A DNA stretch of 64,000 nt from Eledone cirrhosa (taxonomy: Eukaryota), in assembly GCA_964016885.1 (NCBI GenBank), contig OZ024740.1, positions 237,522,001-237,586,000 of the forward strand, given 5' to 3'. The translations under genes and the position numbers were made by a program. Shown here piece after piece: positions 3,280 through 61,500 of this stretch. The notes below the pieces were generated by a model. The model was not told where the DNA came from. It ran no database searches and saw only the letters and a list, made by a program, of their open reading frames with translations. Position 1 is the first letter of the stretch. Each line of letters opens with the position of its first letter.

Positions 3280-3394
<115 letters not shown>

Positions 3395-3470
3395 CGGAGG
3401 AAATGTGGTAAGGAACCAGGTGGACCATAACGCACCAAAGTACTCAATACTTAGGGTAGTAGAGTGGGTA

Positions 3471-4294
3471 ATAGGAACGAGTAGGACCCCGACGGTTGAG
3501 CTCAAGCCGTTTCGACGGCTAATTCTGGACTAAATGAAAATTTTTATCCTGGTATATGAATAGCCGAGCTTCTCAGGAGGTAATTCCATATATGGTAAAA
3601 GTGATTGTCACAAGGATTGGTCAAAAGTTTGTTGTTGAGACACATAATTCTATCATGGCAATTTGTGGAGGAAAGGGGTAGCTGAACCTGCCAGTAGAAG
3701 AAAGAGGGAGAGGGGGTGGAGGAAACCCAGTCGTGCGTTGATAGTGCCAACTACAGCTGGGCAGGAGGTCAAGGAAGTATACTAGGGAGGCGGAGGGGGA
3801 GGAAGTTGGAACAATAAGTAAAACAATATGGGGTAAATATATAGAAAAATACCGAGAATGTTAAAAAACAATTAATTATAAAAAAAACAATTTCTGGTTA
3901 CTATAACCTAAAGACAGCTATCAAGTCTCTCACTGGTACTGCTAGACTAAAGAAAGGTTTACTAGGTGGGACGGAATTATAATGAGACCCTTTTAAGAGG
4001 TATTAGTAATCAACCGAGTATATCTTACGGTGACGGGTCAACAAGTGGGGGCCAAAATACTAAAGAAACTACCACGAAATAATAATTCAGAGTCCCGAGA
4101 CTAATACGAAATAAAGGTTTCTACCCCAGGTACAAGGCCAGCAACCATCCAGTGCAAAAAAATAAACTAATACGAAATAATAATTCAGAATCCCGAAAAA
4201 GAATACTGATACTATCTCTAAGGGTGCCGCTACGATACAAAAATTCTAGTGCAAACTACATAAATGCTCGTACGAAGTATATGAAAAATTTGAT
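3471..4294 (-). repeat. Inverted pseudo-LTR copy (pairs with 5896-6698)
   Basis: Identical 68 aa translations at 3544-3750(-) and 6443-6649(+). The reverse-complement match runs from ataggaacgagta to aaaaatttgata. Confidence 0.9.
3486..3581 (-). ncRNA. Hammerhead ribozyme in Penelope pseudo-LTR (CTGAGAA core, G8A; probably impaired)
   Basis: Minus strand: acctc-CTGAGAA-gctcggcta...tagccgtc-GAAA-cggcttgagctcaaccg-TC-ggggt. Stem I 5 bp, stem III contains the palindrome ttgagctcaa, GUC triplet. Confidence 0.65.
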
Positions 4295-4320
4295 ACGGAA
4301 AATTAAATAATATAACTCAC

Positions 4321-5532
4321 CGATATGTTCCCTGCATTCGGCGGTGGATTGTACCGTGATGATGGGCTCCTTACCCTTAAAGGGTACAACCCCAGTAGTA
4401 CAGACCGGGTCCGTAAATCAGCTTCTTCCGCGACTGGGGATTTAAAATAACCCTACAAACGTCCCTGACCCGAGTAAACTTCCTGGACGTTACCCTTGAC
4501 CTCGATAATGATCTGTACTACCCATACAGGAAACCCAACGACAACCTGCACTACATCCACCACCGGTCAAACCATCCTAGGAACATCACCAATAACCTCG
4601 TTAAAAATATCTCCCTCCGCATATCTCGTTTGTCCGCTAATGAGCAGATATTCGAGGAACATGCGCCTTATTACAACCAGGCCCTCAAGCGGAGTGGTTT
4701 CCGGGAGGAAATATCCTACTGTCCAGCTTCCATTAGCGGAACCAGCAGGCGACACCGCCGCTCACGCAATGTAACATGGTTCAATCCTCCCCACAACGCC
4801 AAGGTGACAACTCCTATCGGGAAAATCTTCTTTAGGCTCATTGAAAAACACTTCTCACTACAACACCGCTACCACAACATAATTAACAAAAATACCATCA
4901 AACTCTCCTACAGCACCACACCAAACTTTGCACAAAACATCGTCTCCTCTAACAACAAAAAACTCAACCCCTATGGAAGAAATAACCTAAATAGCAGTGG
5001 AGAGCCGACCAGGAGGTGCAACTGTCCTGATGGATCCATTTTCCCCCTCGACAACAGATTCAGAGATCGTAATGTGATCTACCAGTGCAACGTGAGGACG
5101 GACACCTCCAACAAAGCTTATATAGGATTAACCGCATGTGACTTCAAGACCTGGCTATACCAACACAGACATACCTTCCGAAACCCGGCCCGGCGTCACG
5201 CCACTACACTTTCGGGCCACATATGGGACCTCAAGGATAACAATATTACCTATGATCTCACTTGGAGCTTACTGTTCAGAGCCAACTCTTACATGGGAGG
5301 ACGCCGTCCGTGCAATTTATGCTCGGAGGAAACTTTACAAATGCTGTTTTCGACGGACCAACTCCTAAACAAGAAAGATGAACTGGTAACTGCATGTAAA
5401 CACAAATTGCGTAGGACTTACCTCGCCCTCAAACCCCATAATGACCCGGGGGGGGGGGGGGGGGGGGTAGACAAGGGTTATAACACCCCACTTGCCGACT
5501 TTGTAATGGGTAACCCCTGCTTGCAAAGGTAG
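4321..5532 (+). pseudogene. Penelope RT (C-terminal half) + GIY-YIG endonuclease, frameshifted and 5'-truncated
   Basis: GGLYRDDGL, then a frameshift near 4420, then RVNFLDVTLD..YRKP..SNHP..WFNPP..KLSYS..CNC..VIYQC..YIGLT..CNLC..CKH (ORF 4630-5532). Confidence 0.85.
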
Positions 5533-5895
5533 ACGTAAGATCGTCTTTTATATCTTTTTATCGCTTCCTCTATATTTCCTTCTCCCCCCCCCCAATCCCT
5601 CCCTAGTCCTTCCACCCCAGTCCTCTTTCTTTGTCGTCGTCCTTTTCACTTTCTCGCCCACCCGAGGCAGCCCCTCGGTCCTTTGTAGCCTCAATACCCC
5701 CACCCCCTTCCCCTATTCTATGATAGAATTGGCCGACTCCGCTTTTTATAGCAGATGTGATAGACCCCGGATACTTGCCTTCTTATCCGATGGCTGCCCC
5801 CTTTTCCGTGCTTTCTACATTTCTTTTTGGTATCTTTGCTTTAATTTCTCGTACATAAGTATTGGGGGGGGGGGGGGAGGCTTATGAATTAATTT

Positions 5896-6694
5896 TATCA
5901 AATTTTTCATATACTTCGTACGAGCATTTATGTAGTTTGCACTAGAATTTTTGTATCGTAGCGGCACCCTTAGAGATAGTATTAGTATTCTTTTTCGGGA
6001 TTCTGAATTATTATTTCGTATTAGTTTATTTGTTTGCACTGGGTGGTTGCTGGCCTTGTACCTGGGGTAGAAACCTTTATTTCGTATTAGTCTCGGGACT
6101 CTGAATTATTATTTCGTGGTAGTTTCTTTAGTATTTTGGCCCCCCCACTTGTTGACCCGTCACCGTAAGATATACTCAGTTGATTACTAATACCTCTTAA
6201 AAGGGTCCCATTATAATTCCGTCTCACCTAGTAAACCTTTCTTTAGTCTAGCAGTACCAGTGAGAGACTTGATAGCTGTCTTTAGGTTATAGTAACCAGA
6301 AATTGTTTTTTTTATAATTAATTGTTTTTTAACATTCTCGGTATTTTTCTATATATTTACCCCATATTGTTTTACTTATTGTTCCAACTTCCTCCCCCTC
6401 CGCCTCCCTAGTATACTTCCTTGACCTCCTGCCCAGCTGTAGTTGGCACTATCAACGCACGACTGGGTTTCCTCCACCCCCTCTCCCTCTTTCTTCTACT
6501 GGCAGGTTCAGCTACCCCTTTCCTCCACAAATTGCCATGATAGAATTATGTGTCTCAACAACAAACTTTTGACCAATCCTTGTGACAATCACTTTTACCA
6601 TATATGGAATTACCTCCTGAGAAGCTCGGCTATTCATATACCAGGATAAAAATTTTCATTTAGTCCAGAATTAGCCGTCAGGGTCTTACTCGTT

Positions 6695-6698
<4 letters not shown>
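5896..6698 (+). repeat. Penelope 3' pseudo-LTR (sense copy) with a 23 nt deletion removing the ribozyme GAAA and stem III
   Basis: Reverse complement of 3471-4294, except tagccgtc joins directly to agggtc at about 6679. Confidence 0.85.
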
Positions 6699-12715: not shown

Positions 12716-15080
12716 TTTTTTTTTTTTTTTCCTTACCGCAGGCACCTGAGGATTACCCTCAGTAGCACTAGACTGGCATGTGGGAGACGCACGAGTTCAT
12801 CCATGCTGGAGCTGAGTTGGGGGTGATAACAATCTACCATCAAGGCCGAACATCTCATCCAAAGATGTTCAGAGGATTCTTCTTCCTCTCCACAGAGACG
12901 GCATGTGTTGATTTCTGCTTGGCCGATCATATGGAGCCATCTCCTTAATGACGTGTGATGTCCACTGCGGAAGCGGACGAGATCTTCCTATCTGCTTTGG
13001 AGAGAGTTTGCTCACTCTCTTCATTTGGGTGGCGGCTAAAGACTGATTGAAGATGTTGATGCTGGATCGGTGGTGGGCGAAATTCTCGGCGAATGACGGC
13101 GCGTCGGGTGGCGGCATCGATTGAACTTTCCAGTTGAGTAGATGCTGAGCCTTGTTTCGCCTGGGCGTCCGCCAGTTCATTCCCTTTGATGTTGCAGTGC
13201 CCCGGGACCCAGACAGCTGCTAAGCTTCTCCCCTTTGTGATTTTGTTAGCGATCCCTTGCAGCTCGGTAATGAAAGGGTCATGGGGGAAGGGGTTGTTGA
13301 CTGCTTGAACCAGCGAAGAATGTAGCAACGATGTGGTTTCGATCCAACGACTAGAACCCGACTGAAATGAATTGGGACAATCGGAGGCACTGATCGGTGG
13401 TGCTGCAGCCCTTTTTGAAACCAGCTTGCCAGGGACTAAGAATGGAGTGTTCCCCTAGCCACCAAGTTAACCGGTTCGCAATCAAACGCTCTAAGAGCTT
13501 CCCCATCGTTGAGGTTAGTGCAATTGGTCGATAACTCCCCACATCCGCCAGATCTTTCCCTTTTTTAAGAAAGGGAATGATAGTTGCCATTCGCCAATCT
13601 TGTGGGCACCAACTGAAATTTAGTAGGTCTAACAATGTTTTTAAGGCTGTTGGTGGTAGGTGTTTGAGGAGATCTGGTGCTATCTGGTCAGGACCAGCCG
13701 CTTTCCCGGCTTTTATTTGGTTCAATGCTTTCTGTAGTTTGTCGATAGAGAAGGCTGCTTCAATCTTATGTCTTGGTGAGTTTCGAGCACCCTGGATGTT
13801 GAGTCGTAGCTCCCGTACATCTTTCCTAGTGTTTTTATCTGGCTTTCTTCCGCTAACTGCGGCATACTCTTGAATGAAAGCTGCAGCCTTCGATCGGTCA
13901 CTAGCATGGGTCGCCCCTTTGTATAGTATGGACTTGCTGTTGTTAGCGCAGCCTTTTCCTGACAATGATTGAACTATTGACCAGGCCCTTTTACTATCTT
14001 TCGTCTCGGATATCGTCTGTAGGTGTTTCCTCCAGGCCTCCCTCTTGCACTCATCTGTTTTTCTAACCACCTCACGCGAGGTCTCCAAACACTCTATGCG
14101 ATTGTTCTGAAGATCTCGCCTGAGACGATTGCGTATTTTGATCAGACTTTTTAGCTCCGTTGTCATCCATAGGCATTCATTCTTACGGATGGCCTTCAGG
14201 GGAACTGCCACGGCTTCTGCCTTTTTAAGGAATGTGAGAAGTGCTGCCAATTTACTTGAGGGGGAGGCTTCATCGGAGACTTTGTTAATTCCCTCTTCAA
14301 CAAATTCCCGGAATTTTTGCCAGTCTGCTTTTTGATAGTTTCTCTGTGGTTTCTGTCGTGGTCGTTCTACCTGAAGATTGACACCCCAGTGGATAACGAT
14401 TGGAAGATGATCTGAGCCGAGATCATTCATAGTATACCATGAGAATTGGTTGACTGAGTCTAGATCTACTACTGTAAGATCTGGTGCACTTATTCCTGCT
14501 CCCTGTTGGTATCTCACAGCTCGCGTCAGGGTTCCATCATTTAGAATGGATTTAGAGTTGTCTTCAAGCCAGTTGATAATATCTGAACGGCGGGTATCAG
14601 CTTTTGCAAACTGGTCCCACGTCGAATGGTGAGCATTGAGTTCTCCGCAGATAATTTCTCGTTTGTTTGATAGGTTGTTGATCCAGACGTTGTTATTCGA
14701 CGGCTGTTGGGCACGGCCAGATTTCTGCGGGGGCCGTTAGGCGTTTGTGACAGAAAACTAACATCTACTGGTTAGGTGGATGACAATCCGTTGTTGATCC
14801 AGGGGGGTTGTGTTCACATGCGGTGGTACTGAGTACTGTATGCCCTGCCGGATGTAGATCATCAGTCCACCGCCATGGTGGTGTAATGTACCGCTGCCTT
14901 GCCGGTCCTGCCGAATTGCATCATAGCCATCAATTGTTAAGGTTGGATCTTCATGCCCTAATTTGGTTTCTTGGATAGTTGCAACGTCTATATTGTGTTT
15001 CAATACGAACTCTTTTAATTCTATTATCTTGGATGGAAGGGAATCTGCATTCCATTGTAAAAATTGGAGCTTACGTACAG
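12716..15080 (-). mobile_element. I-group (Ingi/Nimb/I-like) LINE: APE, partial RT, RNase H, CCHC; RT core deleted
   Basis: LQWNADSL..IQETKL, GSDHLPI, KAAGPD..SYRPIALTS..QAGF, WVPGHCNIKGNELAD (RNase H), CRLCGEEEESSEHLWMRC, A-rich 3' end. Flanked by CAG/CAA-rich sequence. Confidence 0.8.
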
Positions 15081-15537
15081 TCGTTCTTGGTATTTGTGTA
15101 TATACTGTCGTCGGTGTTGTTGTCATCACCACTGCCACTGTCACTGCTGCTGCTGTTGTTGTGGTGATGACTGCTGCTGTTTCTGTTGTTTTTGCCTTTG
15201 CCTTGTGATTGGACGGAATTGGTTGGTTCTACCCTCTGAACACCCCGCTGTTCCTCCCCGTGGACAATTTTTTACGTCTACCATGAATTTTTTAAACAAA
15301 AATTTACGGCGTATGATTGTAAATAAGTACAAATTCAGCCCTTAAGGGCGAGAGATACAGTTAAAAACGACCTCCTTTGAAAGAGGGCTTCTTTAACTAC
15401 ACACCAATGTAAAAATTACTATATAAAATTTTCGATAAATTCATAAAATTCAACTGACTTACTCCGTCGTAGTTACAATCATCTCGAGAGATTCAGCACA
15501 TAATAATAATAATAATTGTTTCTAAATAATAATAATA

Positions 15538-19905: not shown

Positions 19906-22900
19906 TTCCTTGAATCTCAGTCATTGATGTTGGTTAACTGGAAAGTCCGTTGGATTGAATATCAAGCCACTACCTGCAGCCTCAGATATTCAGGACGTAT
20001 CGGAGGGTTCTTGCTGTTCCAAGCAAGCATGCCTTTTGAAGCGTTCCAAAAAGCGTGAAGGGGCCGATTTTCTTTAACCATCCCTGGAAACCTTTGGAGA
20101 TAGTCCCCAGTGCGCCTATGACAATCGGGATCACTTTGACTTCATGGCAGTTCCAAATCCTTTTCACCTCCCACTTTAGGTCCTGGTATCGGTTAATTTT
20201 CTCCCTCTCCTTCTCTTGCACTCTCGTGTCGAACGGGCAGGCCACATCCACAATCAGGCACGATCTTTTTTCTTTGTCCACAACCACCAGGTCAGGTCTA
20301 TTGTGTTCCAGTTTTTTGTCCGTCTGTATCCTAAAATCCCACAGCATCTTCACCTGACTGTTCTCCATCACCGCCTCTGGCCTATGCTCATACCATTTCT
20401 CAGAATGTGGTAGATTGTTTACTTTGCACAAGTGCCAGTGGATCACCCTGCCCATCACATCGTGTCTCCAGCCCTTATAGTGGGTCTGGGCTAGGTGTTT
20501 ACACTCGGACACAATGTGAGCCACAGTCTCCTCTCTCTCTCCACAGATCCTGCACAGTGGGCTAGCCTCCTCCTTGTAGATATGGTGCTTCAACCACTTC
20601 GTTTTGAGGGCCTGCTCCTGCGCAGCCATTAGCATTCCTTCTGTAGCCTTTTTGAGGTCTCCTCTTCTCAACCAGTTCCATGTCTGTGGATCTCTAAATT
20701 CAGTTTTCTCAAAGAAGGTACTATGAAGGGATTTTCCCTTAAGGCTGCTCTTCCTCCTTGATGTTATTTCCTCCTTGGACATCCCCTGGCCTACTGTCCC
20801 CTCCTTCAGTACAGTTCTGAGCATTGGCTCCTTACTATAGGTCACGTATTTGTATAGGTTGTTTTTCTCCATCTGAACACAGTCCTCTATGCTGATAAGA
20901 CCTCTTCCACCCTCAGATCTCCTTAGGTAGAGTCTATCGACATCACTCCTCTTGTGGAACATGTTGTAGATAGTCAATAGCTTCCTAGTCTTCCTATCCA
21001 TTTCTTTTTGTTCAGCAACATTCCATCTCAGAATTCCCGCACTGTACCTAATAATAGACACAGCTCGGGAATTTACTGCGCTTATGGCATTTCTGCTGTT
21101 CAGATGTGACTTCAATACGCTCCTTACTCTCCGAATGTATTCAGTTCTTAACAATTCCTTCATTTTTTTGTTCTTTATGCCATCAGCCTCCAGAACGCCC
21201 AAATACTTGTATCCTTCCTCAGAGTCAATTTCCTTTATCATCTCACCTGTTGGTATCTGGATCCCGTTACTTCTGCTCAACCTACCCCTCTTCATCACAA
21301 TGACTCCACATTTACCAATACCAAACTGCATACATATATCACTGCTGAAAATACGGACAGTGTCAACAAGCACATCCAACTCCTTCTCACTTTTCCCGAA
21401 GAGCTTAAGATCGTCCATGAAGAGGAGGTGATTGATGGTAAGCTCTCCCCTTCCCAACTTGTATCCTGCTCTCACTTTTCGCAGCATAATGGTCAAGGGC
21501 ATCAGGGCAAGGACAAACAACAGAGGGGACAGGCTATCTCCCTGGAAGATACCTCTCTTGATCTTCACGCTTCCCAAGGATACTCCAGTTGATGTCAACT
21601 CTGTCTCCCAGGACCCCATACTCCTGCCCAGCAACTGTCTGGTGTTATCTGCCACCCTGAAGATCTCCAGGCTTTTGGTGATCCAGGAATGAGGCACCAT
21701 GTCAAATGCCTTTCTGTAGTCTATCCATCCCATGGCAAGATCAGTGTGTCTCCTCCTGCAATTCCACATTACCATCTTATCAATAAGCAACTGGTCCTTT
21801 GTACCACGTGACTTCTTTCGGCATCCTTTCTGTTCGTCCGGTAACAAGTTGTTTGTGTGGAGGTGATGGTAGATTTCCTCAGACACAATGCTCGTCAACA
21901 GTTTCCACATTACGGGCAGACATGTGATAGGTCTATAGTTGGTAACATCATTACCCTTGATTCGGTCTTTCATTATCAGAACTGTGGTACCTTTTGTCAA
22001 CCACTCTGGCACCTCACCCGACACCAAGCAGTCATTGAACATGGCCGTCAGCTTCGGGTGGAGGGATGTTAAATGTTTAATCCAATACCCCTGCACACCA
22101 TCTGGGCCTGGTGATTTCCAGTTGGTTAGTTTTTTGGCTTGCCCCTTAAGAGTTTCAACTGTGATACTCAAATCAGTCTGTTGTTGTGCCTGCTCACCGA
22201 TCTCCCTCTGTACTGTCTCAATCCACCCTGCCTGGGCATTGTGTCTAACATCCTGCTCCCATATTCCTCTCCAGAATGTTTTAGCTTGTTCCGCCCCAGG
22301 GATCAAGTCGTTGCCTCTTTCTTTCCCCTCAAGCTGTCCAAACAGCATCTTCTGGTTGTTGTCGAACATGCGGTTCTGTTTATACTGACTGACTCTGTTC
22401 TCGTATCGCCTGATTTTGGCACTCTTTGCTACAATGCGTTGCTTCAATTCCTCTATGATAATATTTAGCTTTTTACTCCTAGTTTTGTATTTTATTTCCA
22501 GTCTATTTTTAGTGCCTATGTTTTTTAGTGTCCCATTCAGTAGTGACTCAAGCTTTCCTATGTCATTTCTCATTTCCCCGATTTGCCCACTCAGTCGCTT
22601 CTTCCACCACGGTTCTGCTCTTTCTTGTCTGTTGTTTCCTCTCGCTTTTATACCAAGTAGTTTCCTCACCGTATTTGCTGTTGCTTTGAGGATATTGTTG
22701 CACTGGTGAAGGCTCCTCGCCTCAAGGTATGGGATGACTTTGTTTACCTTAGCTGTTGTTTCTTTTAACTTTTTCCTGTCTACAAATCTTAGGTTCATAG
22801 GTCTCCCACTATCATTGTTCAATTCATCTACCACTAAATTTAGGATGTCAACCGAATCTTGTCCTAGCCCGTCAGCATTCATCTCCTCAGTGGCCGTATC

Positions 22901-23815
22901 TCTGTTCCAGGTATTATTTATCTCAGTATTCAGATCATTGTCTGCTTCGGGTGGTTCCTCCGTTCTCAGGACCTCCTCACCTTCATTTCCCACCGGCTCG
23001 CTTGTCTGGCATACTACACCCGCCATCTCCAAGCCATTCTCTCTGCTCAGTTCCTCCAGTTCCAGCTCGCTTATCCACCCATTAGTTCTTATTACCCGAG
23101 CCTGCCCGGCCAATTTTTGTTCATCTAATTTAAATAAACCAATCTCGTTCCAGATGTTATGCATCCGTCTCCTGTAGCCCCTCTCCTTGGGGTTACTTTT
23201 CAGGTAGCATTGCATAACAGTTCTATTCAATACTTTCGTCCAGTTGGTTCTGGCCCCTTTCCTTCTTCTTCTTCCTCCAACATCAGCAGTATTTGGTTGA
23301 CAGTCAGGTTCCTGCTGCTGAGCCAGGGGGCACCTGTTGGGTGAGAGTCTGTCACATGACGTTCTAGTCTCCATTTCACCGTTATTCGAACTGTTTATGT
23401 TCGATATTTAAACACTCTTATCGAGGATTGGCGAATGTATGTTTACATAGCCATCTGTGGATCCGCCATCCCACTTGGCCCTTGTGTGGCATTATCACCA
23501 CGCTGTATACGAACACACATAAACAAACAAACACACGGGCAGAAAGGGCCCCAAAAATGAATAAGCATAAGTTTCATTGTAATGTAGTATTCGAATGTCT
23601 GACTTAGTTTTTGTTTTTTAAGTTTTACTTTTTCCCCCCTCTTCTCTGTCCGTCCGCCTGCTTCTCTCTTCATTCTTATTTTCTTTACGTTTTTGGGGTT
23701 TCTTTTTTTGTTTTTGTTTTTCTCTGTTTGTTTTTCTCGTTTTTGCTGTTGTTGCTGTGCTGCTTTGGTTTTGTTGTTTGTTTCTTCTTTTTTCTTTTGA
23801 GTCTATCTATATATA

Positions 23816-26151: not shown

Positions 26152-29100
26152 CACCTCCAACAACACGACAGCAAACACAGAAAACACCAACACCCCAACA
26201 GCAGACACAATACACAGCCATAGACACAGACAACACAAAGCTTTTAAATTACATTCAACACCACACCAATATCACAGAAACAAACTACATACAAACCACC
26301 AAAATTGCACCCCCCCACACACATAAAAATAATAGAAATTACACAAAAAAATTATATAACATTAAAAAAAATGTTCCCCACATCAATTGTAGACTACCGA
26401 GGGAACATCACCAAAAGAATATTCACGGATATTCTCGTGGAGAAACCCACCAATGGTCGGAGGGATAGATCACCCACCCCCTTCCTAAAGAAGAGCCACA
26501 GGTAATTTTTTTTCTCCCCTCTCACTTGTTTTCTTCCTATCCTAGCCAACATGGCTACTCTCAGAATAGGTAGCATAAATGTACATGGCCTGGGGTCGTC
26601 TTGGAAGAAGGTGCACCTGCTGAACGATCTCAGGTCGCTAAACATAGATGTGGTGCCCATCAGCGAGACCAGAATCTCCGAGGCATGGGCCTTCACACCG
26701 ATCTTCGGCGGCTACTATGTGAACGCATCTCCCAGCCGTCCTGGATCAGGGGGTGGAGTTGCTGTGATTTTTTGGAGAGGTTTGGATCTCGCCATACGGG
26801 CCATCTTCCTGGACCCGGAAGGTAAGTTGGTGGTGCTAGACGTGACCAGCGGAGACGGGCAAGCTTTCAGGCTAGTGGCCGTCTATGCCCCGACAGGAGC
26901 TGGGCGGCCTGATTTCTTCCGGCGTCTGGAGACCTTTCTTGGAACGTCCCGCTCTTTAGTGTTAGTGGGCGACTGGAACGGGATCTTAGATGCACGCTGG
27001 GACTGTGTGGGATTAGAGGATAGGGGAGGATGGTGCAAGAGCCTCACCAACATGCTCAGGCGTTTTGAACTGTCTGACAGGTACCGATTGGATTTCCCGA
27101 ATGTGCCAATGTGGACTTGGACAAACCGTATCGGGTCATCCAGATCATATCTAGATAGAGTATTTTGTAGGGAAATAGATAGGTCTAGCATAGGCCGTCC
27201 ACAATTCAAGATAGTCAGCTACACGGACCACAAATTCGTGATCTGTGTGGTTGACTTAGATAGGCTTCATAGACGAGGACCCGGCTACTGAAAGTTAAAC
27301 GCGTCATTACCAGCGCGCAAGGCCTACAGAGACTGGATTAACGAACTAGTTAAGCGGGCGTTGACGGGGGCCATCGTCAACAAGAAGTGGTTATTTGCTC
27401 TGAAAAGAGCAATTAGAACAGTGTCCATTAGGTTTAGCAATAGAGAAAAATAGAGCAGAGGGAGAACTAGTTAGAAAATTAGACGAGGCGCTTAGCAAAG
27501 GCATCACGACCGACGTACTTGCGGCGAAATTGGCCCTTGACCAATTCTTCAATGCAAAGCACGAAGGCTGCGTTGCCAGAGCTAGGGTGCGTGCTCTCAG
27601 ATACGAGGGGACGAAAGCCGTTCAATGGTCCCGAGTGGCGGAGGCGCGTCGTGGCAACAAAGCCACGATCCGGTCTTTGGTGGACCACGATGGGCGCATG
27701 CTACTCGATCCCGGGAAAATGTGTGAAGCTTTTCAGCGACACTTCGCTATTCGGGGGCAGCGGCGGGCCGGATCAAGAAATGGACTTTAGTGTCTACCTC
27801 GGCGACTGCCGCGGCTCTCGGCCACTGAGGCGGAGAGTTGCGAAAAGCCGATAACAGCAGCTGAAGTACGGGAGGCAATCACTGGCTGCACAAGGGGTAA
27901 ATCGCTTGGTTTAGATGGTCTGCCCTATGAACTTTACGTACAGATGCCAGACTTGTTCGGAGGCCTCTTGGTGGATGTCTACTGCAACTTGCAACAGAAC
28001 GGGAGAATTCCCAGCTCTGTGAGCCGAGGAGCGGTGGCACTGCTGAAAAAGGATCCGAACAAGGGGGATAACATAGATAATTTTAGGCCATAACTCTGCT
28101 AAACACAGAGTTCAAGATTTTGGCCAAGGTGCTAGCAAAGAGATTGGCGCTTGTCGTTGGTGGTCTGGTTGGAGAGGCGCAGACAGGCGCCATTCCAGAC
28201 AGATCCATCCATGACAACCTCCACCTCATGTGATACATCGTGGAGAGGGTAGCTAGGGAACCTGGCACGGTGGGTCCTTGATCAATTTAGATCAGTCGAA
28301 AGCTTTCGATAGGGTCGACCATCGTTATCTAGCGGCAGTCCTGAGGGCGGCTGGCTTTGGGCCCGTCTTCAGAGGCTGGATCACTGCCATGCACAGCGAC
28401 ATCTGCTCTGTGGTGAGAGTGAACGGTCACCTTTCAGAACCTTTCAACATCATGCACTCATTCCGCCAAGGATGTCCACTCTCGTCCCTCTTGTATGTAT
28501 TGACTCTCGAGCCATTACTGCACAACCTGGAGACATTGAAGGGGGTCCCGCGCGAACTAGGATCCGGAAGATCCGTGTCAGCATATGCGGACGATGTCAC
28601 CGTAGTGGTGTCGAACGCCAAACACATCAAGGCGACCGGCAACACACTAAGAGAATACAAAGCGGTGACAGGAGCAATGATCAACCAGGAAAAGTCAGTG
28701 GGCCTGCAGATCGGCACCTGGAGAGGCAGGTCCATGCCGTCCAACAGCGTCATCGGGTGCTGGACGGACGGACCGGTTAAATTGCTAGAGGTCTGGTTCG
28801 GTCCGGACCTCCAGACGGACAAAAACTGGGACGAGGTGACGAGCAGGGTGGCTTCTCTCACCCAGAAATGGGCGGAGAGGAAGCTATCCCTGAAGGGTCG
28901 AGCAGAGGTGGATAACGCGTACATCGCGTCCGTCATCTACTACCACCTGACCGTCGTACCTTGTCCTAAGCCCCGCCTGACTGCGCTGGAGCGTTTGCTC
29001 TTTCGCTTTTTGTGGAAGGGACACGCTCCGATGGTCAGGCGGTCCATTTACTGTCAACACCCACTACGTGGAGGGCTGGGCAAGCCGTGGATGATGATGC

Positions 29101-30189
29101 GCAGACACGCGCTCAGGCTACGACATCTCCACCTCGACGGTGATCAGGTGTGGTCGCCGTTTGCTAGACGTGTCTTTCCCCAGCTCGTCTCCTTGACGGA
29201 GCTGCAGTCCTGGGTCAAGCGAAGACCGAGAGGGAGCGCTTGGAGACTGGAATGTCTTCAGGCGCTCACAGCCCTCGACCAATCGGGCAATGTGATCGGT
29301 GGAAACTCCACCTTGGCGTTCTATAGAGGATTAGTGGAGGGGAAGAGCGACGACGTACTTGGGGAAACTCTAGGCGTCGACGAAAAATCAACTAGCCAAT
29401 CTCTTTGGAAGAACTTTCGGGCCGGGGCCTATGGACAACTTCCAGAAATCCCTGGCCTGGCAGTGCTACCGAGGAGCTTTGCCAGTTCGGGATAAACTCT
29501 ACAGGCATGGAAGTGCCGTCAGCCGGGCATGTCCGAGATGCGCGCAGAGCGACAAAACCGTCCTGCATGCACTCGTCCAGTGTCCGAGCATTGCTGACTT
29601 GTGGGTTTATGTCCAACACCTGCTGTCACATGTAGAACGAATCCGACTATCAGCTGAGTCCATCGTGAGGATTGCCCCACCCTTTTCCTTTAGCTGGGAA
29701 GGGCAGGCAGTTTTTATCTGTCTGGTGGCCATGGCGAAAGAGATAGTATGGTGAACACGTCTGAAATGGCTGAAGACGAGCACTTACCTCTTCGGTGATG
29801 CCCTGATTAACTTTTTCAAATTTCATTTGAAAAGGAAAATCAGGGTAGAGAGGGAAGTGCTCTTTTCCCAGCATGTTGTTGAAAGATGGGTGAGAGAGGC
29901 AAGTATGGCCCGAGTGAATGGACTACTCTGAGTATATGCCTGTAAATTGAAGGTGGAAAACTGGGAGAGGACATTTGCCCTGGTGGTCAGGGTCACCGTG
30001 GCTTTTTTTAATGGGCTTTCTCCACGATGGCCCTCGGAAGTCTCCCCCCCTATTGGGGAATTTTTCGTTGTTCTTTTATTACATCCTCTGTTTTGTTTTT
30101 TTACACGCAGAAATGCCCATTTGTACCGTCCTGTATTGACCTTATTGTCTACTTTGTGTAAACCCTTGTGGTTAATAAAGAAAGCATTG
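26152..30189 (+). mobile_element. Tx1/L1-clade LINE: complete but disrupted ORF2 (APE, RT, CCHC), 5' truncated
   Basis: SINVHGL, SETR, VYAP, GDWN, SYLDR, TDHK (APE). NFRP, DQSKAFDRVDH, RQGCPLS, AYADD (RT). CPRC..HALVQC. Several stops and frameshifts. Confidence 0.88.
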
Positions 30190-38149: not shown

Positions 38150-38735
38150 TCTATATCTAGCAAGAAAAAACCTTGACATAAAGCCGTTGTGTGGTTTGTG
38201 CCACCATTTCACAGTCAATATTAAGACTAATGCAGGTGGAACATTCCTAGCCCTCCTTGTAAGCTATAAATATCAGCTTATATTCAACTGCCATTCAGTG
38301 AAAATAGGCTACTCTTGTACCAAAAGCATGAAATCCCACATCACCAACAAACGCAAAAGCCTTCCACATTATCGATGTTCATATAGAAGGCCAGAGGCAT
38401 GCCCCCTGATCCAACAGTGCAACACGCCAGCAATGATATATGAAGTAGAAGTGACCTCCACCAACCAGAACCACCAAACAGAAGCCTGGACTTATGCAAG
38501 AATGTCTGAGAGCCGAAAAGGCCTTCAGACATCCTGACAACCCCCCCCCCCCCCCAAAAAAAAAAACCAATCCACATGTGGAACCTCAAAGGTAATGGCA
38601 CAACGTTTTCTATTAAATGGAGGATACTGAGGTGAAATTTTGTCAGCACTGAGAAGTGGAATATACGCCCACAACTGTCTTCAAGGAAACACTGATTAAC
38701 TACACGCCTCAAATGCTTCAATCATTATCCTCACA
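38150..38735 (+). mobile_element. Decayed Penelope (Naiad-type) linker/GIY-YIG fragment
   Basis: IFNCHSVKIGYSC..RCSY..CPL..C..MIYEVEV parallels the ORFs at 4630 and 40500. Confidence 0.7.
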
Positions 38736-38980: not shown

Positions 38981-39038
<58 letters not shown>

Positions 39039-39041
<3 letters not shown>

Positions 39042-39331
39042 GGTGAGTAATATTGTAGGACAATAAAACTATGCATATATCAGATAAGTAGCACTCAACA
39101 GTTGGTAGAACTGGAGTATATATAATAAAGAAGAAATTAAAAGATGGTTAAAAGAGTTCCATATATTTTATTATGCGCATTTCGAATACAAAATCCTCCT
39201 TGGACAAAAATTGTGTTCTCATCAGATAAAATAAGGTAACATGATATGAGGCATAATACCACTTGTTTACAGGAAAGTGCTAAGTCTACATAATAAAATA
39301 TATGGAACTCTTTTAATTTCTTCTTTATTAT

Positions 39332-39333
<2 letters not shown>
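39039..39333 (-). mobile_element. Short Penelope-type fold-back cassette (solo pseudo-LTR-like) in (TA)n
   Basis: Inverted repeat 39122-39175 vs 39289-39331 (an 11 nt duplication in the left arm). Contains a hammerhead. agcactcaac..actggagta is shared with ~40235-40258 next to the Penelope ORF at 40500. Confidence 0.75.
39164..39233 (-). ncRNA. Type I hammerhead ribozyme with intact core
   Basis: Minus strand: tattttat-CTGATGA-gaacacaa[19 nt]ttgtattc-GAAA-TGCGCA-TA-ataaaata. Perfect 8 bp stem I, G-C-closed stem II, palindromic stem III ATGCGCAT, AUA triplet. Confidence 0.9.
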
Positions 39334-39394
<61 letters not shown>

Positions 39395-39398
<4 letters not shown>

Positions 39399-39725
39399 CC
39401 CGTCCCACCACCACCACCCCCACCCCATCCACACCACCCCGTTCTATGTAAAGTTATGTTGGTGCCGCGCCATCGAGGCCGAAACAAATGAGATCGTGTA
39501 GGTGTCACGACAAAAAAACACACAGTCCACGCTGTAATGTGGCCGTGTAGGCAACACGGTAAAAACCTCCCAGACCCACACTGTAAATGTGGTTGGTGTT
39601 AGGAAGGGCATCCAACTGTAGAAAACCTGCCAGACAGTCCTATGCGAGCAAGACAATCACTCTTGCCTCAAGTGGGACTACCCCCATCCAAACCCATGCA
39701 AGCGTGGAACACGGACGTTAAACGT

Positions 39726-39762
<37 letters not shown>
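39395..39762 (+). mobile_element. RTE 3' UTR module with (GAT)n tail
   Basis: Near-identical to ~950-1298 (aggaagggcatcca..gtagaaaacc..gacgttaaac(gat)n). Confidence 0.85.
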
Positions 39763-39959: not shown

Positions 39960-41270
<1,311 letters not shown>

Positions 41271-42545: not shown

Positions 42546-42555
42546 GATATATATA

Positions 42556-43079
42556 TCATCATCATCATCATCATCATCGTTTAACGTCCATGTTCCACGC
42601 TTGCATGGGTTTGGACGGGAGTTTTCCCACTTGAGGCAAGAGTGGTTGTCATTGCTCGCATAGGACTGTCTGGCGGGTTTTCTACAGCTGGATGCCCTTC
42701 CTAACACCAACCACATTTACAGTGTGCGGCTGGGAGGTTTTTACCGTGTTGCCTACATGGCCACATTACAGCGTGGACTGTGTGTTTTTTTTTGTCGTGA
42801 CACCTACACGATCTCATTTGTTTCGGCCTGGATGTGGCACCAACATAACTTTACATTGAAAGGGGCGGTGTGGATGGGGTGGGGGAGGTGGGGAAGGGGT
42901 GTATTTTGTTAGAGATGTCTACTGACTGTAGTAGGTTTTACTTTGTATTTAGGTAAGGCGGGTCTTCTCTATTACTGTGTACCGCCAAAGGTCTCGGTCC
43001 AGTGACATTGTCTTGGAGAGGTGTAAGTGTGTGAGGTCGGAATTTATCAGCTCGTCCCAGGTTTTTCTGGGTCTGCCTA

Positions 43080-46720: not shown

Positions 46721-49700
46721 TGTAGTGCCTGCCCCCTTGGGTCGAGAAGGAGACTGCGCAGTCCGCCGAGAAACGCTTTAGAGCTCTGGTCCATTTAGAG
46801 GATATCGGGGATGGCACTCCATCGGACCTCTTACGTCGGATGAAAGACCTAACAGAGGGGTCGGTAGCGGAAACCGCGATGTTGAAGCAGTTGTTTTTCT
46901 TGCGGCTACCGACCAACGTGCAAGCAATTTTGGCTCCCATTAGGGATACATGTTCTGTGGACCAACTGGCCGCCTCTGCGGACAAGGTTTTTGAGGTCAC
47001 GGATGCTGGAGGCAGCAGGCCCTTGCTGCTGTTTCTACCCCAGCTCAGGCCAAACCTGGCCATGCCACCTGCGTGGCAACTCATGCAGACAGCGCAGCTA
47101 TAATGGCTATGCAAAAAGCTATTCAAGAACTCACCCTGGAGCTAGGGAAGCTGAAGGCCTCTGGTAATGCTCGTTCGCGCTCACGCGGCCGCGGTAGATC
47201 TACCCTTTCAGACACTGCCCCAGGTCACCAGCTTCATCTTTATGCTGGTACCACAAGCTTTTTTCTGAGAATGCGAACCACTGTGTACAGCCTTGTTCTT
47301 TGTGAAGTCAGGAAACGACAGAGAGGTTGGCTGAGGGCGGCAGTTGACCTCAGCGTAAAGCACCCAAACTGCCACTTCTTCATCAAGGACCTCCTGTCTG
47401 GAAGAGCCTTCCTCGTGGATACAGAAGCCTCCTGTAGTATTTGGCCAGTCCCCGTAGAGTCATCCGTTACTCTGCAGGCCGTTAACCACTCGCCTATAAA
47501 GACGTACGGACAAATCTCGCTTCCCCTCAAATTCCCAAATCTTCATATGGATTTTAAATAGATTTTTACGGTTGCTGACTTGCCATACCCAATCTTAGGA
47601 GCGGATTGCCTCCAAAATTTCTCCTTGACTGTGGATGTCCGAGGCCAACGTCTAGTGGATGACATCACTGGTTTCTCAATTCGTGGCCGAAGAGCCGGTG
47701 CTTCAACGGTTAGCCCAATATTCTTCATCACTGCTGCTGGAAACTCCTACCATTCGTTGTTAGAATCGTTCCCGGAGCTCATCGATGGAAATTTTCGAGT
47801 TACCGAGCCAACTCACTCAACCGAACATTTTATTTCCCCAACCGGTGCTCCAGTATTTTCACGTCCACGTCGTTTACTGGCAGACAAGTTAAAGGCAGCA
47901 CGGTCGGAGTTCGACCATATGCTGCAGCCTAGCATTATTTGCCCATCTACGAGTCCTTGGGCTTCCCCAGACTTCTGGCGACTGGAGACCCACTGGGGAT
48001 TATAGGGGATTAAACGTGATGACCGTCCTGGATAGATATCCGATTCCCCACCTCCAGGATTTTGCATCTTCGTTGCAGAGTTGTAAGATTTTCTCCAAAC
48101 TCGATTTAGTACGTGCTTACCACCAAATGCCAGTCAGGAAGGAAGACATTCCGAAAACAGCTATTACGACTCTATTCGGATCCTTTGAGTTTTTGACCAT
48201 GCCCTTTAGACTCAGGAATGGCGCTAGCAGTTTTCAGCGGTTCATAGACGAGGTGAATCATGGTCTGGACTTCGTTTATGCATATATAGATGATTTTCTC
48301 GTCGCTAGTTCCTCTCCAGAAGAGCATATGCGACACCTGAACCTTTTATTTTGCCGACTCCAGGATTACCGCGTTCGAGTGAATCTCGCAAAGTGTATTT
48401 TCGGATCCGTTTCACTGAATTTTTTAGGTCACATCATCGACGCCGAGGGTATTCGACCCCTTCTACAGTGAGTTAAGGCTATACAGGATTTACCTCGGCC
48501 TACCTCATTTCGCCAGTTGCGTCACTTCTTAGGCCTAATCAATTTTTATAGACGTTTCGTGCTTCAATGTGAAAAATTACTGTTTTCCCTTACCGAGATT
48601 TTGAAAGATCGTCGTAAGAAGAATGAGGATATTTCCTTGACACAAGCACAACTCAAAGATTTCCAGACGGCCAAGACAGCACTTGCTAATTCATCTTTGC
48701 TAGCCCACCCAGTACCCGATGCCAAGCTTTTGCTTTGTGTCAATGCATCTGATACCGCTGTGGGAGAAGTTTTACAACAGTATAACGCTGAACACCAACA
48801 ACCTTTGGCATTCTTCTCCAGGAAGCTGAAACCAGCAGAAACTCGTTACAGCACGTTTGGTCGGGAGTTATTAGCCATATATCTGTCGGTGAAACATTTT
48901 TCTCAGAAATTGTACAGTTTTCACTGACCACAAACCTCTGACCTTCGCTTTGAGGGCTAAAGCCGACAGATATTTGCCCAGAGAGACAAGGCACCTCGAT
49001 TACATTTCGCAGTTTACCAATGATATCCAGCATATTTCTGGCTCACTACATACAGCTGCAGATGCCTTGTCACGCTTGCCATTCAACTCGATTTCGTTAT
49101 CCCAGGAGATGGATTTAAGTCGTTTGGAAGCAGATCAACCTGCACTCGAATCGTTGGATACTTCATCAGCCGAATTTGCGACTTGCAGCCTGAAATATCT
49201 GCCCTTGTCGACTACCGACAGACAGATTCTCTGCGATATATTTACGGATTCACAATGACCTATGTTCCCGAGACTTACTGTCGAATTGTGTTCTTTGCTT
49301 TACCCAGTATTTCTCACCCAGGATCTTCAGCCTCAGTAATGCTCATAACGGCTAGATTTTTCTGGCCAAATATGTGGCGCGAAATTATTGCTTGGTACCG
49401 TTCCTGCATACAGTGTCAAAAATCTAAAGTCCACAGACACATCCGGACTCCACTTGGTACTTTCAGTACTCCGGATGCTCGTTTTCGACACATCCACATC
49501 GATATCGTTGGACCTTGGCCATTCAGTAGTGGATATTCTTACCTTTTGACCTGCATTGATCGTTTTTCGCGATGGCCTGAAGCCATCCCCTTAAAGGACA
49601 TTACCGCCGATACAATAGCGCGTGCCCTAGTATCAGGGTAGATTGCACGCTATGGCGTGCCAACTACAATTACTACAGATCGTGTTAGGCAATTCGAATC

Positions 49701-58570: not shown

Positions 58571-61500
58571 AGACGATAGGCGAAAAGCCCGAAGGTAAAT
58601 GTAGCGAACCCGCAAGAATGGGATCCAAGCAAAGGCATGAAACAATAACAAAAAATAAAAAGATACATGCATACATAATACAAAGAAAAGGAAAAAAGAA
58701 AAGGCTCCATAGTGGCCAGTTCATATAAAAAATGTCTGACAGAGTTTTTGGGCCAGTGGACTCTTCGACCGGGACGGGTCGTGGTCTTGTATGAGGTGAA
58801 GGTGGGGCAAAAGGAGCAGGTGTATGCACAATAGAGAAAGATGGGGGTATTTGTGGCTCAGGTGTATGAGCGTCAGTGTATGCCCTTTTTAGTCTATCCA
58901 TCGAAATTGTCTCTCTGGATCCCTTAATGTCTACTGTGAAATGTTTGTCAGTACGTGCTAACACACGGTAGGGTCCAGAGTACGGTTGTGTGAGAGGTGG
59001 ACTAACCACGTCCTCTCTGACAAAGACATGTGTCCACGAAGCAATATCCCTCGGGACTGCAGTTTTAATAGTTTGTTTCATAGTATCCATAGGCAATAAG
59101 TCCTGAAAATAGGAGCGCAAACGAGATAAGTAGGAAAGAGGATCTTGAATAGCAAGATCAACAGGGGCAAGCATTTGCCCAGGCAACGCTAGAGGAGCAC
59201 CATACAATAATTCGGCCGGAGAGAACCCAAGGTCCTCCTTTATTGAAGACCGAATTTCTAACAACACAATAGGAAGGTACTCGCTCTAACGTAGAGGGTC
59301 TGGATAGGCGCGTAGAGCGGCCTTTAATTGGTGGTAAAATCGTCCACCATTCCGTTTGAAGCAGGATGATAAGATGTGGTCCGAATACGTTGAGCGCCAA
59401 TAATTTTTGTCAGCTCTGAGAAAAGATGAGATTCAAATTGCCTACCACGGTCTGTGGTAATTGTGGTTGGCACGCCATAGCAGGCAATCCACCCTGATAC
59501 TAGGGCACGCGCTATCATTTCGGCGGTAATGTCCTTTAAAGGGATGGCTTCAGGCCATCGCGAAAAACGATCAATGCAGATCAAGAGGTAAGAATATCCA
59601 CTACTGAATGGCCAAGGTCCAACGATATCGATGTGGATGTGTTGAAAACGGGCATCCGGAGTACTGAAAGTATCAAGTGGAGTCTAGGTGTGTCTGTGGA
59701 CTTTAGAATTTTGACGCTGTATGCAGAAACGGCAACAGGCAGTAATTTCTCGCCTCATATTTGGCCAGAAAAATCTAGCTGTTATGAGCTTTACTGTGGC
59801 TGAAGCTACTGGGTGAGAAGTACTGTGCAAAGAAAGGAACATAATTCGACGGTAAGTCTCGGGAACATAAGGACACGGTGAATCCGTAGATACGGCGCAG
59901 AGGATCTGCCTGTCGGTAGTCGACAAGGGCAGATATTTCAGGTTGCAAGTCGCAAATTCGGCTGATGAAGTATCCAACGATTCGAGTGTAGGTTGGTCTG
60001 CTGCCAAACGACTTAAATCTATCTCCTGAGATGACGAAATCGAGCTGATTGGCAAGCGTGAACAAGGCGTCTGCAGCTGTGTTTAGTGAGCCAGCAACGT
60101 GATGTATATCATTGGTAAACTGCGAAATGTAATCAAGGCGCCTTGTTTCTCTGGGCGAATATTTGTCGGCTTTAGCCCTCAAAGCTAAGGTCAGAGGTTT
60201 GTGGTCAGTGAAAACCGTAAAATTTCTTCCCTCAAGAATATGAGAAAAATGTTTCAACGACAGATATATGGCTAATAACTCCCGACCAAACGTGCTGTAA
60301 CGAGTTGCTGCTGGTTTCAGCTTCCTGGAGAAGAATGCCAAAGGTTGTTGGTGTTCAGCGTTATACTGTTGTAAAACTGCTCCCACAGCGGTATCAGATG
60401 CATTGACACAAAGCAAAAGCTTGGCCTCTGGTACTGGGTGGGCTAGCAAAGATGAATTAGCAAGTGCTGTCTTGGTAGTCTGGAAATCTTTGAGTTGTCC
60501 TTGTGTCAAGGAAATATCCCCATTCTTCTTACGACGGTTTTTCAAAATCTCGGTAAGGGAAAACAGTAATTTTGCACATTGAGGAACGAAGCGTCTATAA
60601 AAATTGATTAGGCCTAAGAAGTGACGCAACTGGTGAAGTGTAGTAGGAGGAGGTAAATCCTGTATAGCCTTAACTCGTTGCGGAAGGGGTCGAATACCCT
60701 CGGCGTCACTGATGTGACCTAAAAAATTCAGTGAAGTGGATCCCAAAACACACTTTGCGAGATTCACTCGAACGCGATAATCCTGGAGTCGGCGAAATAA
60801 AAGGTTCAGGCGACGCATATGCTCTTCTGGAGAGGAACTAGCGACGAGAAGATCCTCTATATATGCATAAACGAAGTCCAGACCATGAGTGACCTTGTTT
60901 ATGAACCGCTGAAAGGTGCTAGCAGCATTCCTGAGTGCGAAAGGCATGGTCAAAAGCTCGAAGGATCCGAAAGGAGTCGTAATAGCTGTCTTCGGAATGT
61001 CTTCCTTCATGACCGGAATTTGGTGGTAAGTACGTACTAAATCGAGTTTGGAGAAAATCTTACAACTGCAGAGTTGTAAGTTTTTCTCCAAACTCGATTT
61101 AGTACGAAGATGCGAAATCCTGGAGGTGGGGAATCTGATATCTATCCAGGATGGTCATCGCGTTTACCTCCTATAATCCCCAGTGTGTCTCCAGTCAGCA
61201 GAACTCTTGGGCACCATATGTAACGGTGAAGCCCAAGGACTCGTAGATGGGCGAATAATGCCCAGCTGCAGCATATGGTCGAACTCCGACCGTGCTGCCT
61301 TTAACTTGTCTGCCGGTAAACGACATGGACCTGAAAATACTGGAGCACCGGTTGTGGAAATAAAATGTTCGGTTGAGTGAGTTGACTCAGTAACTCGAAA
61401 ATTTCCATCGATGAGCTCCGGGAACGATTCTAACAACGAATGACAGGCGTTTCAACAGCAGCGATGAAGAATATTGGGCTGATCGTGGGAGCATTGGCTT

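Follow-up and report, generated by a model that had tools for sequence, protein, structure and literature searches.

The window, which is the whole stretch of 64,000 nucleotides analysed here, carries on its minus strand at 39233-39164 an intact type I hammerhead core with three helices, of which helix I is open-ended. This hammerhead lies in a 297-bp two-armed insertion in which the ribozyme is predicted to be blocked by one of the arms; the insertion is probably what a double 5' truncation has left of the end of a Hydra-clade Penelope-like element, or of a non-coding derivative of such an element. The motif is classed as a type I hammerhead by its core and stems, its self-cleavage being predicted, and the assignment of the cassette to the Hydra clade, which is likely, rests on the (TA)n target, a motif in the tail and the architecture. 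The locus adds another instance to the known system of hammerheads at Penelope ends; one more such hammerhead has little weight alone. The features concerned, with the basis of each in brackets, are the following.

38983-39038, no strand: (TA)28, left half of the microsatellite that was probably targeted (sequence)
39336-39395, no strand: (TA)30, right half of the microsatellite that was probably targeted (sequence)
39039-39292, minus: long arm, a 5'-truncated family terminus with hammerhead and tail, its 3' end at the left (TA)n (family depth)
39039-39121, minus: tail of 83 nt, at the long-arm end only (absent from the short arm)
39090-39098, minus: TTGAGTRCT terminal motif, common to other element ends (motif search)
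39289-39335, plus: short arm of 47 nt, a sense copy from the cut site onward, without the tail (self-comparison)
39233-39226, minus: stem I, 5' strand (sequence and descriptor)
39225-39219, minus: core C3-U4-G5-A6-U7-G8-A9 (sequence and descriptor)
39218-39184, minus: stem II, long, with 3 bp, one mismatch, 4 bp and a weak distal part (fold, family variants)
39183-39181, minus: core G12-A13-A14 (sequence)
39180-39173, minus: stem III, an 8-nt palindrome (fold; double change in the family)
39172, minus: H17, an A in an AUA triplet, with the predicted scissile bond 3' of the A (sequence, hammerhead numbering)
39171-39164, minus: stem I, 3' strand (descriptor and fold)
40216-40295 (right boundary approximate), minus: inverted leader of the neighbouring element PLE-B, with a related tail, likely of a different family (alignment)
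40323-41054, plus: PLE-B, a 5'-truncated Hydra-clade Penelope-like ORF with RT thumb and GIY-YIG region (motifs)

An intact core, an 8-bp stem I, a stem II closed by a G-C pair and a self-complementary stem III had been described in a first-pass annotation of this DNA, and all of them can be read directly from the minus strand, where G10.1 (39218) and C11.1 (39184) form the closing pair of stem II. Stem I consists of eight Watson-Crick pairs, every one of them A-U, and is predicted to gain 5 bp beyond an internal loop (39156-39160 with 39235-39240). Stem II taken alone has a predicted energy of -4.3 kcal/mol, and stem III is predicted to form 2 bp and a tetraloop as a monomer and 8 bp, at -10.5 kcal/mol, as a dimer. 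A descriptor combining the core and the three stems found a single site, 39233-39164, on both strands of the 64 kb, and among 200 block-wise dinucleotide shuffles it gave a stem I of at least 4 bp in four, of at least 5 bp in one and of at least 6 bp in none. The same site was again the only one in the window when one core mismatch was allowed and a palindromic stem III was required. When the stems are dropped, the core pattern by itself is not significant (23 matches in the window, a number reached by 17 of 100 shuffles), and the 91-nt hammerhead strand shows no greater stability than its shuffles (z of 0.24). No hammerhead match was obtained from Rfam for the 39233-39164 motif, either at the gathering score or with E relaxed to 10, and the long stem II may be the reason.

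The cassette between the (TA)n runs measures 297 bp, against the 295 bp reported earlier, and is indeed free of ORFs and bounded by (TA)n on both sides. Its long arm (254 nt, minus sense) is the part that reads and contigs of the family span, from 39039 to ~39292, after which depth is near zero (at most 40 in run X1); because family depth collapses at this point, the short arm seems to be specific to this copy. The short arm, 39289-39335, is an inverted copy of 39175-39122 that has lost 11 nt between two short direct repeats; it is predicted to pair over the cut site and stem I. Both arms are 5'-truncated and lie head-to-head in inverted orientation, with the tail, for which a small hairpin is predicted at ~39092-39118, on one side only. 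At the junction 4 nt (39289-39292) belong to both arms, and within the range set by these shared bases the short arm begins 0-4 nt before the predicted scissile bond, while its outer end at the right (TA)n corresponds to an internal TA run of the long arm. There is one copy of the hammerhead and no tandem unit in the window.

An inverted 5'-truncated copy, a one-sided tail, a head-to-head arrangement and a junction overlap have all been described for published Penelope insertions (PMC8557442, PMC3846280), and Hydra elements are known for a (TA)n target and for 3' hammerheads with a near-palindromic stem III (PMC8557442). The cassette resembles the Hydra-clade hammerheads of Craig et al. (2021, PMC8557442) in its (TA)n, in a type I motif near the 3' end and in a near-palindromic stem III of 8-10 nt, and it resembles the insertions of that clade in having a similar tail motif, an inverted 5'-truncated copy and a tail at one end. 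It differs from the Hydra rows of File S2 of that article in its longer stem II region (35 nt), and from Hydra elements in its tail, which is 83 nt long instead of 30-40, and in having no linked ORF in the window (PMC8557442). None of the Hydra hammerheads listed in File S2 matches that of the cassette by eye, and the exact 11-nt string of core plus stem has no match in the supplement of the same article. The type I fold, the long helix II (at least 7 bp in the predicted fold of the cassette) and the palindromic helix III are shared with the hammerheads of metazoan Penelope-like pseudo-LTRs (Cervera and de la Pena 2014, PMC4209133), which cut weakly and as dimers, which occur mostly as dispersed single copies in truncated elements, and whose palindromic helix III suits dimer cleavage. 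Unlike those, the cassette has no unpaired base between A9 and G10.1, a base also missing in some Hydra rows of File S2 (PMC8557442), and its helix I has 8 bp plus the extension, whereas theirs has 4-5 bp.

The architecture could be accounted for by an insertion with two primers, which we infer by analogy with PAc, a Poseidon element of Anolis carolinensis for which RT has been described as starting at two sites and extending on both strands (Frangieh et al. 2024, PMC11167929). A Penelope RT-endonuclease would nick a (TA)n run on each of its strands, and two cDNAs would be primed on the family RNA. The first would start at the tail end and run for 254 nt through the ribozyme, on a template that was uncut or circular, and the second would start at an internal TA-rich spot and extend for 43-47 nt, as far as the cut site or slightly beyond it; the 5' ends of both cDNAs would then be joined over the four shared bases. 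The parent RNA would be cleaved as a double hammerhead formed via the 8-nt palindrome, in tandem transcripts or with the help of a protein, and at this locus, which has no second copy, the short arm would emerge first during transcription and would cover the cut site by pairing. The PAc scheme of two starts and two strands would yield one tailed and one tail-less arm, as found in the cassette. However, PAc belongs to another clade and in that study used mainly uncleaved RNA as template, whereas the short arm of the cassette begins 0-4 nt from the cut; the PAc hammerhead cuts only with the protein of the element, and in vitro its cleavage is not required for insertion (PMC11167929).

It is possible, and we propose it only tentatively, that the short arm preserves in DNA a trace of ribozyme cleavage in vivo, the long arm having been copied from uncut RNA and the short arm from self-cleaved RNA. 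If the second cDNA stopped exactly at the cut, the four shared bases are coincidental, and if these bases guided the join, it is the nearness to the cut that is coincidental. Should the cleaved-template reading be true, Hydra-type enzymes would, in contrast to the single Penelope element studied in vitro, use cleaved RNA as a template, and such insertions would silence their own ribozyme, and an accumulation of family arms at the scissile bond would be genome evidence for cleaved RNA as a real template. No paper was found in the literature that joins an inverted truncated Penelope insertion, microhomology and a hammerhead.

The family of the cassette was aligned from four of the 12 listed public sequencing runs (X1, X4, X5 and X10), these four falling under three organism codes, with 1877, 3026, 25 and 3508 records aligned, respectively; X6-X9 carry small shares and do not enter the results. 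It is clearly very abundant: summed depth in X1 peaks at ~1.5 million over 39159-39168, a depth that is no copy number. Among the listed public sequencing runs there was no RNA run carrying the cassette, and no ORF-bearing copy of its exact family was seen in the DNA analysed. A metagenome scan with a 20-nt pattern returned 13 loci and no hammerhead, one of the 13 having a 5' core-like word in an unrelated context.

In X4, which comes from a second organism, position 39175 is changed in 246,378 of 251,921 depth and position 39178 in 247,667 of 251,811 (~98%), and stem III is still a perfect palindrome, while in X1 each of these changes is below 1% of depth. At 39192 and 39215 the alignments have loose ends, where by eye stem II is in many copies a longer hairpin whose loops differ while its pairing is kept. 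Among the 40 of 115 difference rows listed, the sole difference in the single-stranded core segments is at N7 (256 of 315 in X4), a position that the hammerhead consensus leaves free. At 11.1 (39184), U dominates the depth in X1 (250,935 of 281,358), X5 (667 of 687) and X10 (911 of 1,298), so that the G10.1-C11.1 pair is the minority state in these three runs, with G10.1-U11.1, a deviation from the canonical pair, as the majority, whereas X4 keeps G-C. The family majority in X1, X5 and X10 also has a pyrimidine mismatch at the fourth position of stem II. CpG decay was considered as the source of U11.1, but in X1 the change stands at 89% and the change on the partner strand is absent among the 40 of 115 difference rows listed, so that U11.1 is more likely a subfamily state.

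On the upstream side of the ribozyme family depth drops steeply, and the sequence of most copies diverges from that of the cassette. This drop, together with the lack of an ORF in the cassette, would also be expected if the family were a non-coding retrozyme that is cleaved to unit length, made circular and copied in trans by Penelope enzymes, with the locus as a less-than-unit fragment; such an origin, which we regard as rather unlikely, is compatible with the two-primer insertion mechanism, and animal retrozymes have been described as non-autonomous Penelope derivatives (10.64898/2026.07.22.740005). Like animal non-LTR retrozymes (PMC7229834; 10.64898/2026.07.22.740005), the cassette is non-coding, AT-rich, high-copy and likely to be moved by Penelope enzymes, and has a type I hammerhead. 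Unlike them (PMC7229834), it is inverted and, at this locus, without tandem units with complete hammerheads; retrozymes are further marked by the expression of linear and circular RNA of unit length. The depth drop is explained by 5' truncation alone, the window holds a single copy and no tandem unit, and the long stem II with the palindromic stem III is nearer to the Penelope type than to the 4-bp helix II of canonical animal hammerheads (PMC4209133), all of which argues against a retrozyme.

PLE-B lies about 1.1 kb from the cassette. Of 842 candidates, nine are longer relatives of its ORF with an E of 0.001 or less, and in the alignment it has a CxCX5C linker, a CxxC before the conserved E and a CxH after the N; RWK and DKT are present in most of its full-length relatives. 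All of these are marks of the Hydra clade (PMC8557442), and on these motifs PLE-B is classed as a Hydra-clade element. An assignment to the Neptune clade was rejected on the definition of Hydra and on the alignment, and Pfam returned nothing in the PLE-B ORF.

The tail of the cassette does share sequence with the leader of this element at 40215, as had been noticed in the first-pass annotation: the alignment score of 49 was reached by none of 300 shuffles. It was further proposed there that the hammerhead is probably the pseudo-LTR ribozyme of the PLE-B family, and of this the Penelope-type terminal hammerhead stands, whereas membership of the same family appears improbable to us. In its favour are the real homology of the tail, the same orientation of both beside (TA)n at a distance of 1.1 kb and the Hydra-clade assignment of PLE-B. 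However, only 45 of 65 tail columns are identical (~70%), with a 6-nt gap, and the last ~35 nt of the cassette have no counterpart in the PLE-B leader, whereas in X1 a similarity of 90% or more to the cassette is reached by 1693 of the 1877 family contigs. No hammerhead was found in the 3' UTR of PLE-B within the window, and the hammerhead region gave no match to this UTR (220 of 300 shuffles score as well), which seems to be truncated near 41270, its true 3' end lying outside the window; the region also gave none in the 3' UTRs of two other Hydra-type pieces of the window.

The shared tail motif is moreover not confined to these two elements. TTGAGTRCT has four matches in the window, all on the minus strand (1346-1354, 3439-3447, 39090-39098 and 40236-40244), three of which lie 20-51 nt from (TA)n, one of them independent (3447) and two being the sites of the cassette tail and the PLE-B leader from which the motif was taken, while the fourth adjoins (ATC)n; ~1.8% of window positions are as near to (TA)n as those three. 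By eye, a similar motif lies 3' of the hammerhead in four of the six Hydra consensi of File S7 of PMC8557442 (Hydra-1_Amil, Hydra-2_Amil, Hydra-2_Ajap and Hydra-1_Crog) and is absent from Hydra-1_Obim and from the 3' end of Hydra-1_Ajap in the same file. Because the motif recurs at other element ends and in Hydra consensi, the shared tail points to the clade and not to the family. Placed shortly before the microsatellite-bounded ends of four elements, TTGAGTRCT may be a recognition site for the protein of the element.

The folding predictions, which are equilibrium values without Mg2+ or tertiary contacts, differ between the motif taken alone and the whole cassette. As a monomer of 70-96 nt, the hammerhead fold lies 5.3 kcal/mol above the minimum (2.5 with stem III open), the competing fold pairs core bases with a U-rich segment that stem II has in this copy, and the pairing probability of stem I is 0.41-0.72. 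The double hammerhead of two molecules is predicted at -32.5 kcal/mol versus -23.2 kcal/mol for two monomers, that is 9.3 lower, and is still 3.4 kcal/mol above the two-molecule minimum. In these models the motif of the cassette behaves as a terminal hammerhead of the Penelope type that acts as a dimer. A 2017 paper reportedly describes the cleavage of Penelope hammerheads as dimers. The papers found on hammerhead ribozymes in cephalopods do not concern this family, to judge by their titles or the opening of their abstracts.

When the short arm is included, its predicted duplex with the target reaches -49.1 kcal/mol, and in the RNA of the whole cassette the ribozyme fold lies 18.9-21.7 kcal/mol above the minimum, with a stem I probability of 0.0. 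In growing transcripts the pairing probability of the arm is at least 0.977 from the moment at which stem I could close. The ribozyme at this locus is therefore predicted, from these models, to be blocked by the inverted arm of the cassette, although a transcript starting inside the cassette would be without the arm. The 96-nt construct proposed in the first-pass annotation omits the arm and therefore tests the family motif, not the locus. That the site is the best candidate for a catalytic RNA in the window holds insofar as it has the only intact core, and is weakened by the predicted occupation of the cut site by the arm; an intact core in such a cassette is no proof that the locus makes an active ribozyme.

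We consider it highly improbable that selection has kept this copy intact as an active ribozyme that serves its own locus. Such a role would fit the intact core, the G10.1-C11.1 pair where most copies from the same organism have G-U, and the stem I probabilities of the 70-96-nt folds. Nevertheless, at 39196 and 39201, in distal stem II, the copy is unlike more than 99% of the aligning depth, one of the two differences replacing a G-U pair, the monomer fold lies 5.3 kcal/mol above its minimum with core bases paired off, and in longer RNA the arm is predicted to block the ribozyme. The window consists mostly of transposon remains, and in one study only one of nine predicted retrozyme dimers was cleaved (10.64898/2026.07.22.740005). 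That AT-rich DNA merely happens to resemble the hammerhead consensus, with which the non-significant loose pattern, the missing Rfam match, the average fold stability and the all-A-U stem I would agree, has a negligible probability in view of the stems (with a stem I of at least 6 bp), which none of 200 shuffles reproduced, the compensatory change in the palindrome and the stem II pairing kept in the family.

Further elements of Hydra type are present in the window. At 3394-6696 there is a Hydra-type Penelope-like element with an ORF remnant at 4316-5532 and an inverted left arm of 801 nt at 98% identity, in which ~120 extra nt occur on the left arm only, the same end asymmetry as in the cassette on a larger scale. 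Its hammerhead (minus, ~3575-3480) has an A at core position 8, and stem III is missing from the copy on the right. A strong fold-back at 22-211, of -87.7 kcal/mol over 190 nt and between TA-rich runs, is 83% like the tail of the 3394 element and resembles an inserted half-hammerhead hairpin. A third, decayed ORF remnant of Hydra type (38156-38632, plus), which adjoins the cassette on the left, has a 3' region that reaches the same (TA)n; no hammerhead was found in this remnant. A link of the cassette to the 38156-38632 remnant or to the 3394-6696 element was rejected, as there was no significant alignment.

PLE-B is flanked by inverted repeats of ~340 bp (39404-39747 and 42555-42898), which are 89-96% complementary, lie ~2.8 kb apart and each end in (GAT)n. 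A tRNA-like sequence at 40016-40073 (minus), just below the Rfam gathering score (28.1 bits, E of 0.0064), is probably a SINE head. Much of the window is occupied by remnants of LINE-type elements (endonuclease, RT, RNase H) and LTR-type elements (RT, RNase H, integrase), at 12945-15228, 19982-23407, 26506-29495, 47893-49641 and 59775-61154.
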